Of a DNA stretch of 40,209 bases, positions 4,977-40,003 are shown in pieces; the first letter of the stretch is position 1, and each line of letters opens with the position of its first letter. Source of the DNA: Kayfunavirus T147P5; the sequence record OZ035809.1. One strand, given 5' to 3'. A program made the position numbers and the translations under genes. The notes beneath the pieces are model-generated. The model was not told where the DNA came from. It saw only the letters and a list, made by a program, of their open reading frames with translations, and made no database searches.

Positions 4977-5046
4977 TGATTAACTACAGGTCGTTAGACT
5001 GATAGCGGCCTGACTGATAGTCACTAACAACTGAGAGGATATAACT
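4977..5046 (+). promoter_or_regulatory. conserved early intergenic element E3
   Basis: TGATTAACTACAGGTCGTTAGACTGATAGCGGCCTGACTGATAGTCACTAACAAC; contains short hairpin TGACT-GAT-AGTCA; precedes ocr-like gene. Confidence 0.4.
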
Positions 5047-5550
5047 ATGGAACGTAACGCTAACGCATACTATGAGCTGCTGGCTGCAACCGTTGAGGCA
5101 TTTATCGAGCGTATTCAGTACGACCACCTGACTCAAGATGATGACTACAGCGATGCGCTGCATGAGGTCGTAGACGGTCAGGTTCCACACTATTACCACG
5201 AGATTTTTACGGTGATGGCTGCTGATGGTATAGACCACGAGTTCGAAGACTCTGGGCTGATGCCTGAAACCAAGGACGTAACGCGTATACTACAAGCTCG
5301 CATCTATGAGGCGCTTTATAACGATGTGTCTAATAGCTTGGATGTAGTCTGGTTTGAGGCTGAAGAGGCAGACGAAGAGGATGAATATTGGGTAGTTGAC
5401 GCTAAAACAGGCGCAATAATTGTGCAAGCTGTAGCTCTTGAGGTCGCTACTGCATGTGCCAATGTCAACTATGCAACAGGTCGCCACCTGAAGGTGGAAG
5501 ACATCAATGATAACGTAGTGTTCGACCCTGCGGCTGAGGACTGCGAGTGA
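5047..5550 (+). CDS. ocr: Ocr-like DNA-mimic anti-restriction protein (T7 gp0.3-like) with about 54-aa C-terminal extension
   Basis: [43 protein letters not shown] nearly identical to T7 Ocr core; acidic stretch [10 protein letters not shown]; 167 aa versus 117 aa in T7. Confidence 0.8.
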
Positions 5551-5705
5551 TGGTAACTTATGGTATCTGCCAGCACCACGTCGCAAACGCCCGGCTTATG
5601 GTCAAGACCGGGCAATTAAACCACGATGCGACTATGCGTCACCTGAAAGCGGTCTATGAGGGCCGCAAGCGCATACACGACAGTTTGCACGCTGAGGATA
5701 AGTAA
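5550..5705 (+). CDS. small early protein at the position of T7 gene 0.4
   Basis: Not in ORF track (51 aa); ATG overlaps ocr stop (TGATG); ..TMRHLKAVYEGRKRI.. loosely resembles T7 gp0.4 as recalled. Confidence 0.45.
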   Translation: MVTYGICQHHVANARLMVKTGQLNHDATMRHLKAVYEGRKRIHDSLHAEDK

Positions 5706-6525: not shown

Positions 6526-9207
6526 ATGAGCGTCATCTCTATTGACAAACACGACTTCTCTGATGTGTCGAACGCCATTGAGCCGTTTAACCTGCTGGCT
6601 GACCACTACGGGCAAGACCTTGCAGTCAAACAGCTTCAGCTTGAGCATGAGGCATACACTGAAGGCGAGCGACGTTTCATCAAGAACCTTGAGCGGCAGA
6701 CTGAGCGAGGGGAACTGGCAGACAATCAGGTCGCCAAGCCTTTGATGCAGACTCTGGTTCCTAAGATTGCGCAAGCCGTCAAGGAGTGGCATGAAGGTCC
6801 AGACGGGAAGCTGTCAACCTCTCGTCCGAGCGTAGCGTTCACCATGTTAAGCACTGAAGAGAAGGCCGTCAAGGACCGCTCTCTTCGCATCTCCTGCGAG
6901 TCTGCTGCGGTTATCATACTGAAGGTCATCCTCTCCAAGCTGGTCAAGCCTGAAGGTATACCGATTACACCGATGGCCTCCGCGATAGGTCGCACACTTG
7001 AGGATGAAATCCGATTCGGTCGCATTCGTGACAAGGAGAAGGAGCACTTCAAGAAGGCAATAGCTGATAACCTGAACAAGAGAGCCGGGGCATCATACAA
7101 GAAAGCCTACATGCAAGCGGTCGAGACATCCATGCTGGAGCAAGGCCAACTAGAAGATGCGTGGGGAACTTGGAGTCCGACCGAGGCTGTCCACGTTGGA
7201 ATCAAGATGCTGGAGATTGTCATCCAGTCAACACAACTGGTCGAGCTTAAGCGTTATGGTGCTGGCAATGCAGCGGCTGACGTTGAGATGGTCCACCTGT
7301 CAGACTTCTGGGTCAAGAAGATGGCACAACGCGGCTTCAGCCTTGCGGGCATCGCTCCAGTCTACCAACCTTGCGTAGTTCCACCTAAGCCGTGGACTGG
7401 TGTCGTAGGCGGTGGGTACTGGGCCAAAGGTCGCAGACCATTACCACTGATTCGCTTAGGGTCTAAGTCTGCGGTGGCACGTTACGAAGACGTGTATATG
7501 CCTGAAGTCTATGACGCTGTTAACATCATCCAGAATACACCTTGGAAAGTGAACAAGAAGGTTCTGGACGTGGTGAACATGGTCGAGAAGTTGAACAACA
7601 CGCCTATTGATGACATCCCTCAGATGGAGCCACTGAAGCCTGAAGAATATGCGGGTGAGACTGAAGAGGAACTCAAGGCGTGGAAGAAAGCGGCTGCTGG
7701 TATCTATCGCCGCGAGAAGGCCAGACAGTCACGCAGGTTGTCGCTGAGCTTTATCGTTAACCAAGCGAACAAGTTCTCTCAGTTCAAGGCCATCTGGTTC
7801 CCGTATAACATGGACTGGCGCGGTCGCGTCTACGCTGTGCCGATGTTCAACCCTCAGGGTAACGACATGCAAAAGGGTCTCCTGACTCTGGCAGTCGGTA
7901 AGCCTATTGGTGCTGATGGTTTCAAATGGCTGAAGGTCCACGGTGCAAACTGTGCGGGTGTCGATAAAGTCACCTTCGAGGAGCGCATCAAGTGGGTGGA
8001 AGATAACCACGACAACATCATGGCTACCGCTAAGGCACCGATGGACAGCATTGAGTGGTGGGGTAAGTTAGACTCTCCGTTCTGCTTCCTAGCGTTCTGC
8101 TTCGAGTATGCTGGCGTAATGCACCACGGTTTGTCTTACTCCTGCTCGCTGCCGATAGCTTTCGATGGGTCCTGCTCTGGGATTCAGCACTTCAGCGCGA
8201 TGCTTCGTGATCACATCGGTGGACATGCAGTAAACCTGACGCCTTCCGGTAAGGTCCAAGACATCTACCGCATCGTGTCTGACCGCATTGAGGAGGAGCT
8301 TAAAGTCCTGCTGGTTAATGGCACGGACAACGAGGGGGTCACTAACGAGGATAAGAAAACTGGCGAGATTACCGAACGTATCAAGCTGGGGACACGAGAG
8401 CTGGCCCGCCAGTGGCTGACTTACGGTATGTCACGCAAGGTTACTAAGCGCTCAGTCATGACTCTGGCCTATGGGTCGAAAGAGTACGGCTTTGCAGACC
8501 AAGTTTACGAGGACATCGTGATGCCAGCGATTGACTCAGGGTCTGGCGCTATGTTCACTGAACCAAGCCAAGCGTCTCGCTTCATGGCTAAGATGATTTG
8601 GGAAGCTGTGAGTGTGACCGTAGTTGCTGCAGTTGACGCGATGAAGTGGCTTCAAGGTGCTGCCAAGCTGCTGGCGGCTGAAGTGAAGGACAAGAAGACT
8701 GGAGAAATCCTGAAGCCTTGCCTTCCGGTACACTGGGTCACACCTGATGGGTTCCCGGTCTGGCAGGAATACCGCAAGAAGGATACCACTCGTCTGAACC
8801 TGATGTTCTTAGGGTCATTCAACCTTCAGCCTACCGTCAACAAAGGCACGAAGAAGGAGTTGGATAAGCACAAGCAGGAGTCAGGAATTAGCCCGAACTT
8901 CGTCCACTCACAAGATGGTAGCCATCTCCGCAAGACTGTAGTCCACACTCACCGCAAGTATGGCGTGATGTCATTCGCAGTGATTCACGATAGCTTCGGG
9001 ACCATCCCGGCTGACGCTGAGTATCTGTTCCGGGGTGTCCGTGAGACGATGGTCGAGACCTACCGCGACAACGATGTGCTGCTTGACTTCTACGAGCAGT
9101 TTGAATACCAACTTCATGAGAGCCAGCGCGACAAGTTGCCTGAGCTTCCGAAGAAAGGTAAACTGAATATTGAGGACATTCTATCTTCAGACTTTGCATT
9201 CGCTTAA
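6526..9207 (+). CDS. DNA-directed RNA polymerase, single-subunit (T7 gp1-like)
   Basis: 893 aa; collinear with T7 RNAP (DFSD...PFN.LADHYG, FQPCVVPPKPWTG, WFPYNMDWRGRVYAV, FCFLAFCFEYAG, HDSFGT, C-terminal FAFA). Confidence 0.97.
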   Translation: MSVISIDKHDFSDVSNAIEPFNLLADHYGQDLAVKQLQLEHEAYTEGERRFIKNLERQTERGELADNQVAKPLMQTLVPKIAQAVKEWHEGPDGKLSTSRPSVAFTMLSTEEKAVKDRSLRISCESAAVIILKVILSKLVKPEGIPITPMASAIGRTLEDEIRFGRIRDKEKEHFKKAIADNLNKRAGASYKKAYMQAVETSMLEQGQLEDAWGTWSPTEAVHVGIKMLEIVIQSTQLVELKRYGAGNAAADVEMVHLSDFWVKKMAQRGFSLAGIAPVYQPCVVPPKPWTGVVGGGYWAKGRRPLPLIRLGSKSAVARYEDVYMPEVYDAVNIIQNTPWKVNKKVLDVVNMVEKLNNTPIDDIPQMEPLKPEEYAGETEEELKAWKKAAAGIYRREKARQSRRLSLSFIVNQANKFSQFKAIWFPYNMDWRGRVYAVPMFNPQGNDMQKGLLTLAVGKPIGADGFKWLKVHGANCAGVDKVTFEERIKWVEDNHDNIMATAKAPMDSIEWWGKLDSPFCFLAFCFEYAGVMHHGLSYSCSLPIAFDGSCSGIQHFSAMLRDHIGGHAVNLTPSGKVQDIYRIVSDRIEEELKVLLVNGTDNEGVTNEDKKTGEITERIKLGTRELARQWLTYGMSRKVTKRSVMTLAYGSKEYGFADQVYEDIVMPAIDSGSGAMFTEPSQASRFMAKMIWEAVSVTVVAAVDAMKWLQGAAKLLAAEVKDKKTGEILKPCLPVHWVTPDGFPVWQEYRKKDTTRLNLMFLGSFNLQPTVNKGTKKELDKHKQESGISPNFVHSQDGSHLRKTVVHTHRKYGVMSFAVIHDSFGTIPADAEYLFRGVRETMVETYRDNDVLLDFYEQFEYQLHESQRDKLPELPKKGKLNIEDILSSDFAFA

Positions 9208-37528: not shown

Positions 37529-40003
37529 ATGGCTGCAACATTCAATGACTATCCAATACAAGGCACTCAGTACCGAGTAGAGTTCCCATACTTAGCACGA
37601 CCATTCGTCCTTGTATACCTAACGTCCTCAGACCCTCTGGTAGCTCCTCTCCTACTTAGACTTAACTCAGAGTACACTTTCATGTCACCATATCTGATTA
37701 ATATCAGTGTTGCTATGGCTGGATATAATGGAGTACGTTTAGTCCGACAGACATCCTCAACACCGTTAGTAAACTTTGTAGATAGCTCAGCACTAACCGC
37801 TGGAGACCTCACAGTTGCCGAGGTTCAATCTATCCATATTGCAGAGGAGGCAAGGGACCAAACCTTCTCAATGACCAAGGAGATGGTAGACGCAGCACGG
37901 GCTTATCTTGATGAGATTGAGAAAGCGCTAGAGGAGATAAACAAGATTCTGGCAAACGGCTTCAATCCTGTAGGGTCGTTCGAGTCTGGTGCTGAAGTAA
38001 CGATTCGAAATGACACGGTTAGCTTAGGGTTCGGTTCATCCATTCAGTATTTCCAGTGGTGGGGTCAATTACCAAAAACTGTACCAGCGGGTTCAACACC
38101 AGAGTCAACTGGTGGATTAGGTAAAGGTAAATGGGTCCCAGTAGGTGATGGTCAGTTGCGCTCTGAGATTACTGTTCTGGACAGTATTAAGGACCTATTG
38201 TCATCTGCACAGGGTCTTGGTACTGTGCGTTCTGTAAAGGGGTACATCTCAGGTACAGACTTCGGTGGTGGTGACTTCTTGTGGGACCCAACATGTCCAC
38301 GGTCTAAACATAACGGCATCACAATATTCAGCCCAACGGTTCCATTCAGCGGCCTGTACGCAGACGTTCCGAGTTTCCACGCAGGGGTAGGAGAAACAGC
38401 ACCTGCCGAGACTGGCTGCTGGAGACGTAAGGATTGTGGACGTAAGCTATTACTGGCTTGGGGTGGAGTGGATGTATCTGGTACTCAACCAGTTGACGCT
38501 ATCTTGACTAGCATGTGTTCGTATGCACACAACACACGTCAGATTCTTGACGCAGAACCTAATGATGAACTTCAGGCTGGATTCTCGACAGGGACTCAAA
38601 CAAAGGATAAGTTCAACGGCTTCACCCAAGCGTCTGTCGTGCTAGAGAATAAGTACGTCACCCTTAGAGGTAACGGAGCTAAGATTAAGACCTATCACCC
38701 AATCCACAAGGAGCGCTCTGTGTTTGTCCTACGAAATGGTGGATATAACATCTCAGGGTTCAAATGGAACGATGGGTATACTGATTTCAGCATAGCACCG
38801 TCTGATACGCAGCATAAGCAGGGTGAATGGTGGCTTGGAATAGTTGCGGATGGCGGTGTAACTCTTGTGGCTGAAGACAACGAAGTAACTGCTGCGCAAT
38901 ACTTTGTCAGGGCTGATGTATTCAATGGTACGTCATGGAATGAGCGTGTATCGGTGCGCAAGAATAAATTCGCATATGTAACGAACTACTGCTTCCTTAG
39001 CCGCAAGCTTCGTCACTATGAGTTTAGTTACAACGAGGTTAGACACAATGGTAGGGAGTGGCATACCTATGGTGAAGCCTGTGCTCCTACTACCTATACC
39101 ACACACTCTGTTATCAGGAGTAATAACTTCTACAATCAGATTGCAATCCAATCGTGTATAACACCCGGTTCATACCACGAGTCGTGTTTAATCGTGAACA
39201 ATCACTGCGAGAGATATCAGGGTATCTTTGTAGAGATTGGGTCATCTAGCAATATTAGCATCCTAAATAACAGCTCCTATTCAACTGGAGAACGTAACGG
39301 GGCGCACATATTGTTGGTATCAGGAGATGTTGATGATGAACCTGCTGGAGGACTGAGTAACCTAATCATCAATGGTAACGTGTTTAAAGGTGGTGGTATG
39401 GTCGTGCGCGAGTATAACACTGGTACGCCAAAACGGTGGGGTATTTCGATTACCAATAACCACATGATTGACTGCCCTCTACCCACAATGACCAACTCTG
39501 CCTACAACTGCATAACTTTCTCAGGAAACTACTGTGAGCCGCCAGCGGACTTCCCGTTCCTTGCGATTGGTGGTAGGAATCCAATTATCGAGAATAACGT
39601 CCTACGAGGAGTGTCTATTAAGATGAGGGACTTAGGGTATCACATCGTAGGACTAACAGTTAGGAACAATAAGTTTGTGGACGGCGCTACTGTGCAGAAC
39701 TTCACTGCTGCAATCGACATGAACTATTACTCCAGACTTGTGGCTGAAGGTAACGACTTCACGGAATACACCTGTCAGTCAATCTTAGCACTTCCTATTA
39801 ACTCAGTTGAGGTGGGCTTCCACAGACTTGGCTCGGCAGAAGGACTTAAGGATACTCCTACTGCGTTATTTGGTGCAAAACTTACTGACGCATTTGCTGG
39901 AGATTTTGTGGCATGTTCCGACCCGCTGTCAAAAGGCGCATATGGATGGGTTATGATGAATGAACCTAATAAAACTTGGGGCAAGATTAACCTAACAACG
40001 TAA
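37529..40003 (+). CDS. tail spike: T7 gp17-like N-terminal adaptor domain fused to a large beta-helix (putative polysaccharide depolymerase) C-terminal domain
   Basis: 824 aa; N-terminal about 150 aa (RVEFPYLARPFV, DLTVAEVQSIHIAEEARD) resemble T7 gp17 N-terminus; remainder has repeated IxxNN/GN strands (LIINGNVFKGG, ISITNNHMIDC, IIENNVLRGVSI, LTVRNNKFVDG). Confidence 0.85.
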   Translation: MAATFNDYPIQGTQYRVEFPYLARPFVLVYLTSSDPLVAPLLLRLNSEYTFMSPYLINISVAMAGYNGVRLVRQTSSTPLVNFVDSSALTAGDLTVAEVQSIHIAEEARDQTFSMTKEMVDAARAYLDEIEKALEEINKILANGFNPVGSFESGAEVTIRNDTVSLGFGSSIQYFQWWGQLPKTVPAGSTPESTGGLGKGKWVPVGDGQLRSEITVLDSIKDLLSSAQGLGTVRSVKGYISGTDFGGGDFLWDPTCPRSKHNGITIFSPTVPFSGLYADVPSFHAGVGETAPAETGCWRRKDCGRKLLLAWGGVDVSGTQPVDAILTSMCSYAHNTRQILDAEPNDELQAGFSTGTQTKDKFNGFTQASVVLENKYVTLRGNGAKIKTYHPIHKERSVFVLRNGGYNISGFKWNDGYTDFSIAPSDTQHKQGEWWLGIVADGGVTLVAEDNEVTAAQYFVRADVFNGTSWNERVSVRKNKFAYVTNYCFLSRKLRHYEFSYNEVRHNGREWHTYGEACAPTTYTTHSVIRSNNFYNQIAIQSCITPGSYHESCLIVNNHCERYQGIFVEIGSSSNISILNNSSYSTGERNGAHILLVSGDVDDEPAGGLSNLIINGNVFKGGGMVVREYNTGTPKRWGISITNNHMIDCPLPTMTNSAYNCITFSGNYCEPPADFPFLAIGGRNPIIENNVLRGVSIKMRDLGYHIVGLTVRNNKFVDGATVQNFTAAIDMNYYSRLVAEGNDFTEYTCQSILALPINSVEVGFHRLGSAEGLKDTPTALFGAKLTDAFAGDFVACSDPLSKGAYGWVMMNEPNKTWGKINLTT

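Follow-up and report, generated by a model that had tools for sequence, protein, structure and literature searches.

The gene at positions 5047..5550 (+ strand) of the 40.2-kb window (the whole stretch of DNA that was analyzed) encodes a 167-aa long-form homolog of Ocr, the gene 0.3 product, in which a folded module of about 48 residues is inserted within the acidic C-terminal tail. Taken as a description of anatomy and evolution, it is highly likely that Ocr has long contained this module in several lineages of the Studiervirinae and that the module is under selection. The best explanation of the observations as a whole, to which we assign a probability of roughly 0.45, is that the protein consists of an Ocr core, a linker and the inserted module, which would serve as a tethered binding domain and would have been lost on repeated occasions. 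The long form is found well beyond the window, as most alleles in Kayfunavirus are of this form, that of phage K1F included.

The initial annotation, made from the sequence of the window, had proposed an Ocr homolog with a genuinely encoded extra module, which is borne out by the Pfam match, the match to the T7 Ocr structure 1s7z and the conservation of the long frame. The extension of about 54 residues that it delineated (YWVVD...EDCE) indeed starts at Tyr114 (nt 5386) and runs to 5547 in an open frame. However, the extension is not the C-terminal add-on it was taken for: the module sits inside the acidic tail, and the EDCE end is common to the short alleles of Ocr that lack the module.

Genomic context of the ocr gene

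The window is the complete, circularly permuted genome of a K1F-type coliphage of the T7 family (genus Kayfunavirus), with the large ORFs on the + strand and the early region just upstream of the RNA polymerase gene. A 589-aa ORF at 1167-2936, near the start of the window, is presumably the large terminase, and the 824-aa ORF at 37529-40003, at its end, is probably the tailspike. Given the circular permutation, the canonical left end and the early region begin near 3-4 kb. The window contains no terminal direct repeat of at least 60 bp, no long direct repeats were found in it, and a scan of the early region for promoters and terminators returned no more sites than shuffled sequence.

In the ORF list, the ocr gene starts with ATG and ends with the TGA stop at 5548-5550; a Shine-Dalgarno-like GAGAGGA, read from the sequence, is located at 5033..5039 (+), 7 nt before the ATG. 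The phage RNA polymerase is encoded downstream of ocr, at 6526..9207, and the gene order is the same in K1F (0.3, 0.35 ... 1). Adjacent to ocr is a 51-aa gene (5550..5705, +) of the K1F gp0.35/T7 gp0.4 family (phrog_5058, E 4.7e-28), homologs of which carry the PF26807 (Phage_T7_GP04) domain. The ATG of this gene overlaps the ocr stop codon (TGATG), an arrangement that is shared by K1F and its relatives and through which the gene appears to be translationally coupled to ocr.

The Ocr core

Ocr is the textbook example of a DNA-mimic anti-restriction protein and also inhibits BREX. Residues 1-103 of the protein (5047..5355, +) comprise the region that corresponds to this DNA mimic. The Pfam family PF08684 (DNA mimic ocr) matches residues 8-94 with a score of 104.9 bits against a cut-off of 25 (E 3.5e-30), and the PHROG 2568 profile ('ocr-like anti-restriction') is matched with E 3.4e-54, residues 1-143 corresponding to profile positions 1-151 of 161. 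With the alignment running through residue 143, part of the extension is already inside the family profile. A phmmer search of the PDB recovered T7 Ocr (1s7z_A, E 1.2e-25), with query residues 11-111 aligned to chain residues 11-115 and an overall identity of about 50%. A close alignment with T7 Ocr over residues 1-113 had been claimed initially; residues 11-111 do align, but past residue ~95 the likeness is one of acidic composition only.

When the homologs are aligned with T7 Ocr, the columns of three residues, I53, F54 and L82, show no variation. In T7 Ocr, F54 and L82 belong to the dimer interface and also serve as contacts for AriA, the sensor of the PARIS system (PMC10802264). The net charge, counted from the sequence, is -17 for residues 1-103, -8 for the linker and -3 for the module. 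The AF2 model contains three helices in the core (7-26, 35-59 and 75-92), which are predicted with only moderate confidence because Ocr is dimeric and the alignment is shallow. Judging by the sequence, the core formed by residues 1-103 is that of a genuine Ocr DNA mimic, strongly negative and with the dimer-interface residues retained. By homology with T7 Ocr, this core should form a dimer that mimics bent B-DNA and blocks type I restriction-modification enzymes and the BREX protein PglX.

The resemblance to T7 Ocr (gp0.3, 1s7z) extends from the strongly acidic, helical DNA-mimic core and the acidic C-terminal tail to the gene position, ocr being in both cases the first early gene of appreciable size and preceding the gene for the RNA polymerase. 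The two proteins differ in length (117 aa in T7 compared to 167 aa here) and in the module of about 48 aa in the tail, which is present only in the protein encoded in the window. In addition, the latter has diverged in the distal half of the last helix and has a tail that ends in EDCE with a conserved cysteine. Given that the protein has 167 aa and an inserted folded module, against a canonical single-domain size of about 110-120 aa, we classify it as an architectural variant of Ocr rather than the canonical form.

The cysteine in the acidic tail, Cys166 (5542-5544), is conserved in 104 of the 114 sequences that have a residue at this position, in long and short alleles of this clade alike. 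The counterpart of this tail in the Ocr of Klebsiella phages, EDCDD, also contains a cysteine; T7 Ocr has no such residue.

The long form is widespread and maintained by selection

A search of 5.8 billion proteins produced 501 matches, among which we examined the best 120 clusters (90% identity). The lengths fall between 162 and 179 aa in 119 of these best 120 clusters, and the extension is complete in 118, the exception being a fusion protein (P0095) that is discussed below. When the extension alone was used as the query in a tblastn search, it was found in 71 phage records, every time within the ocr gene. Among these is the type phage K1F, where gene 0.3 (record DQ111067) encodes a 169-aa protein annotated as an antirestriction protein. 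The proteins of K1F and other members of Kayfunavirus in PHROG 2568 share the same long architecture, the K1F module being 66% identical to that of the window. Compared to this group, the allele in the window differs in nothing essential: its tail (AAEDCE) is somewhat shorter, and a few residues of the helix (N139, V140 and N141) are unusual. At the DNA level, the full-length ocr gene shares 99% identity with those of Escherichia phages PhiNW-B1, MirsaeidiM_Esher2, UFJF_EcSW4 and others, its closest relatives, so that the gene is an ordinary member of the group.

Long-form ocr genes are misannotated in several records, including OR594182.1, OM937123.1, LT594300.1 and MZ398247.1, where they appear under such names as 'protein kinase', 'N4-like RNA polymerase' or 'NinH protein'.

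The ratio of nonsynonymous to synonymous substitution rates (dN/dS; pooled Nei-Gojobori estimates for 13 long alleles) is 0.33 for the extension, compared to 0.17 for the core. The nonsynonymous divergence (dN) is 0.140 in the extension and 0.052 in the core, that is, 2.7 times as high in the module as in the core. Together, the conservation of the frame and the bias of divergence toward synonymous changes indicate that the reading frame is maintained by selection. These data also bear on the possibility that the extension is an artefact, produced by a sequencing frameshift or by read-through into a separate downstream gene; the initial annotation had advised a check for a frameshift. A few metagenome assemblies do carry frameshifted versions of the gene (P0122), but about 70 phage genomes that were sequenced independently and at least 118 protein clusters have the intact frame, and dN/dS is below 1, so that an artefact of either kind is ruled out for practical purposes.

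Structure and conservation of the module

The core is followed by an acidic linker (residues 104-113; 5356..5385, +), the inserted module of about 48 aa (residues 114-161, YWVVD...VVFDP; 5386..5529, +) and the terminal acidic tail AAEDCE (residues 162-167; 5530..5547, +), the final EDCE of which is common to the short-form alleles. The AF2 model predicts a beta-beta-alpha-beta-beta arrangement, with beta1 at 114-118, beta2 at 124-129, a helix at 131-143, beta3 at 148-152 and beta4 at 157-159. The module has pLDDT values of 81-86 in the full-length model, and residues 93-110 form a low-pLDDT segment. The structure prediction for the extension that had been suggested initially yields a folded domain: when residues 111-167 are modeled alone, the topology is the same, with a mean pLDDT of 90.7 and a pTM of 0.74. 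The pLDDT of 90.7 rules out a disordered extension. The pTM of the full-length model is 0.42, so that the placement of the module relative to the core is of low confidence. As modeled, the extension is a compact, small alpha/beta domain on a flexible acidic linker. With a net charge of only -3, the module does not simply add more DNA mimic.

Conservation is distributed unevenly along the protein. The column entropy, averaged over 118 sequences, is 0.31 for the core (residues 1-103), 0.88 for the linker (104-113) and 0.63 for the module as a whole (114-161). Within the module, the beta2-helix part (123-149) is as variable as the linker (0.88), whereas the hairpin (150-161) has a mean entropy of 0.27. 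The hairpin, V150-E-D-I-N-D-x-V-V-F-D-P161, and the first strand, YWVVD..TG, are conserved as highly as the Ocr core, and the variation in the module falls on the more exposed positions of beta2 and the helix.

The linker varies in both length (from about 2 to about 20 residues among the homologs) and sequence across phages. It also appears unstable: Escherichia phage Mt1B1_P3 (L072) carries the tandem duplication AEEEDEK AEEEDEK, one cluster (P0092) contains an 11-residue non-acidic insertion, and CLB_P1 has nearly no linker (WFEGEYW).

Short alleles and probable repeated loss of the module

Viral contigs with Ocr cores that are 88-90% identical split into long and short forms. The short forms are 110-114 aa long and end in ...WFEAEE(SDE)EDCE, that is, they retain the same EEDCE tail and are followed by the same downstream gene as the long form. 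In the DNA alignment of long and short alleles, the two differ by a clean in-frame segment of 153-165 nt with two types of junctions; depending on the junction, the short alleles lack a few linker or tail residues in addition to the module. The ends of the indel lie in short repeats. One pair consists of GAGGA copies, the left one beside the module at 5377..5381 (+) and the right one at 5536..5540 (+), within GCTGAGGAC at 5533-5541. The other is GCTGA(A)GAGG at 5359-5368 and 5533-5539, with GCTGAAGAGG as the longer left repeat (5359-5368, +).

Named phages with short alleles include vB_EcoP_F, CR44b, Vec13 and the BASEL phage Bas105 (ElsieAttenhofer). With Ocr cores 88-90% identical to that of the window, the same neighbor gene and the EEDCE end but no module, these phages amount to natural 'deletion mutants' suitable for experimental work. 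In an unbootstrapped neighbor-joining tree of the 103-residue core, the short alleles are interspersed among the long ones within the Kayfunavirus clade. Repeated loss by microhomology-mediated deletion would be the simplest reading of these observations, although recombination could give a similar pattern, the tree being unbootstrapped. Long forms are also found in the group that includes Stenotrophomonas phage IME15 and the Aeromonas phages and Escherichia phage Ebrios as well as in Kosakonia phage Kc166A. In the IME15 group and Kc166A, the module is only about 30% identical and keeps the pattern aromatic-W/Y-V-[VI] ... L-E-x-A ... G ... V-E-D ... P.

Two further variants disrupt the module in other ways. 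P0095 (167 aa; 7 contigs, the longest of 38.9 kb) is an in-frame fusion of the Ocr core and the first two-thirds of the module (...GRHLK) with the last 18 residues of the neighboring gp0.4-family protein, AVYEGHKRIHDSLHAEDK. Apparently, this fusion arose by deletion between two RHLK-coding stretches, and the deletion destroys the conserved hairpin of the module together with most of the neighboring gene. In the other variant, an additional G in the Trp115 region turns TGGG into TGGGG, with the result that core and module are encoded by two overlapping ORFs, of 117 aa (Ocr core) and 59 aa (the module alone; P0122). This insertion was found in three runs of a single study (L078:567-1080, L079 and L080; Logan SRR33193082-84), and both a genuine variant and a systematic error are possible.

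The short alleles, the frameshift split and the fusion-deletion show that, in some hosts at least, phages do not need the module for growth. In the initial annotation, a disordered and dispensable extension had been named as the outcome that would speak against a functional module; disorder does not apply, whereas dispensability for phage viability in nature does, given the short alleles.

A second, different fusion involving the Ocr tail was noticed in L050 (IMGVR_UViG_638277131_000001, a 37,555-bp contig), where the ORF at 906 encodes a 140-aa T7-type Ocr with the acidic tail swapped for an unrelated 33-residue end. Apparently, a deletion joined gene 0.3 to one of the early genes that follow it.

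The module is an orphan

The module has no match to a Pfam family (E <= 1) and no separate PHROG family. The word-indexed search of 5.8 billion proteins yielded only two fragment ORFs, P0121 and P0122. A profile built from 40 module sequences had four matches among 1.84 billion representative sequences, all of them repeat proteins with a partial motif; against the PDB sequences, the best match of the module profile was a botulinum neurotoxin fragment (E 0.05), followed by TFIIH p8 (E 0.6-1.2). Foldseek comparison of the modeled module with the PDB gave no significant match (best E 0.75). In BFVD, the best Foldseek matches were small uncharacterized phage proteins (E 0.013-0.03, TM up to 0.78). 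We treat these fold similarities of the model as a generic resemblance among minimal alpha/beta structures and not as indications of family membership.

Several specific origins and affinities of the module were considered. With respect to the fold shared by ClpS and the C-terminal domain of ribosomal protein L7/L12, the likeness is at the level of a sub-fold, the module being about half the size of the ClpS chains (71-97 residues). It does not form a complete ClpS core, aligning to 42-43 residues, about half, of ClpS chains of 79-97 residues. Nor does it belong to the ClpS family (PF02617): there is no Pfam match, ClpS is absent from the list of PDB profile matches, and hhalign against E. coli ClpS gives a probability of 0.2%. 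The T4 antitoxin Dmd and AcrIF9, small inhibitor proteins of phages with a minimal alpha/beta fold, show a likeness to the module that seems generic (Foldseek E 2.7, probability 0.12) and no sequence similarity to it. An origin by duplication of the gp0.4-family neighbor (PF26807) is rejected on the strength of a BLASTP comparison that gave no alignment at E <= 100, the only common element being the short RHLK-coding microhomology. Recent horizontal acquisition would be expected to leave a compositional trace, and there is no GC anomaly (0.472 for the module, 0.482 for the core and 0.499 for the genome, with a standard deviation of 0.040). On inspection, an intein or a mobile mini-element is also rejected, considering that the module is too small, lacks splice-junction residues and is conserved at the protein level across lineages at about 30% identity.

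In the literature that we searched on Ocr, Kayfunavirus and K1F, Ocr homologs and PARIS, the extra domain of Ocr is not mentioned. With respect to this literature, the insertion-in-tail architecture, the orphan status and the repeated loss of the module are undescribed, although the long-form sequence itself is already in GenBank.

Possible roles of the module

T7 Ocr that lacks the last 7 or 17 residues still inhibits DNA cleavage by EcoKI (PMC3439906). Because the T7 tail is dispensable for this inhibition, a domain placed in the tail should not disturb the DNA mimicry. We propose that the module is a tethered protein-protein interaction domain, present in two copies per Ocr dimer. The modules would presumably point toward the outer ends of the dimer. 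The candidate binding site is the invariant acidic hairpin V150-P161 together with the YWVVD strand.

Ocr is known to trigger PARIS, Ronin and the type III enzyme EcoR22I (10.1101/2023.04.06.535777), and it is plausible that being sensed by these systems selects for accessory changes in Ocr. A tethered binding domain might either extend the inhibition by Ocr to a second host factor or defense system, or mask Ocr from the sensing systems, possibly PARIS, Ronin or enzymes similar to the type III EcoR22I. The fast-evolving beta2-helix face and the presence/absence polymorphism would fit an accessory involved in an arms race. Also in line with such a role are the fold neighbors of the module, which include small alpha/beta proteins resembling phage inhibitors as well as small uncharacterized proteins of phages. 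An anti-defense or sensor-evasion role of the module is a tentative proposal to which we give somewhat less than even odds. The suggestion of the initial annotation that the extra module could add to or alter the anti-defense specificity is plausible. Still more tentatively, the module may be an independent effector that is tethered to Ocr and binds a host immune protein, which could belong to a second defense system or be AriA of PARIS, the HsdMS decoy of Ronin or an EcoR22I-like enzyme; this we regard as possible but clearly short of an even chance. If this is the case, long-form Ocr would inhibit restriction without tripping the back-up immunity, and the polymorphism of the module would mirror the sensors that circulate among the hosts.

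A binding role has to be weighed against several readings that assign the module a different function or none. The module could be a structural accessory of Ocr without a separate target, one that caps or stabilizes the tail, contributes to solubility or protease resistance, or alters the oligomeric state by linking dimers, in which case it would only tune the amount or the half-life of an otherwise ordinary Ocr. This would agree with the fact that the module is always fused to Ocr and never stands alone except in the frameshift variant, as well as with its location in a tail that is dispensable in T7 and with the concentration of much of its conservation at hydrophobic core positions. We nevertheless consider a purely structural role rather unlikely. 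The invariant positions of the hairpin include polar and acidic residues of the surface type (E151, D152, N154, D155 and D160), as is more usual for a binding site, and the variability of the helix face suggests change driven by interactions. Ocr proteins of the T7 type and many of those from Klebsiella phages function, or persist, in the absence of the module, and the similarity to ClpS is unsupported by either hhalign (probability 0.2%) or Foldseek. Many host-takeover factors are encoded in the early region of T7-like phages, and a non-defense function of this kind, such as binding RNA polymerase or a housekeeping protein early in infection, could be performed by a module carried on the early protein that is made first and in the largest amount. 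Gene 0.3 is indeed the first sizeable early gene and is adjacent to a gene of the T7 gp0.4 family, and K1F-type phages have no gp0.7 gene in the annotated early region; T7 Ocr itself is reported to bind RNA polymerase as well (PMC7064336). Against these observations stand the lack of similarity between the module and any known takeover factor in the Pfam, PHROG, fold and profile searches, the presence of gp0.7 in at least one long-form phage (SAKp10309) and the repeated loss of the module, which argues against a core takeover role, so that host takeover seems to us an unlikely function.

As a remaining alternative, the module could be close to neutral, a passenger that goes back to an ancient in-frame insertion (perhaps of a lost small gene), is tolerated because the tail is dispensable, and is slowly being lost. 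The case against any functional reading is that the independent disruptions of the module, namely the two deletion junctions of the short alleles, the +1 frameshift and the gp0.4 fusion-deletion, are also what a near-neutral passenger would look like, and that the module is an orphan without homologs. However, a passenger would hardly evolve with a dN/dS of 0.33 and a hairpin conserved like the Ocr core, or persist in three lineages, at identities as low as about 30%, with its secondary-structure pattern and the VED...P motif preserved, and the long form is the majority allele in Kayfunavirus. Accordingly, we deem a passenger improbable. The tethered binding domain that is repeatedly lost remains our preferred interpretation of the long-form Ocr.

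Implications

Most members of Kayfunavirus, including K1- and O-antigen-specific coliphages that are therapeutic candidates, carry an orphan folded domain on Ocr. The natural short alleles, in near-identical backgrounds, make the function of the module directly and easily testable. Should the module prove to do nothing measurable, it would be an unremarked architectural variant of a protein that annotation pipelines already label 'Ocr'. If, on the other hand, it changes the defense specificity of Ocr or its evasion of sensors, the module would represent a new small anti-defense domain and a useful part for phage engineering.
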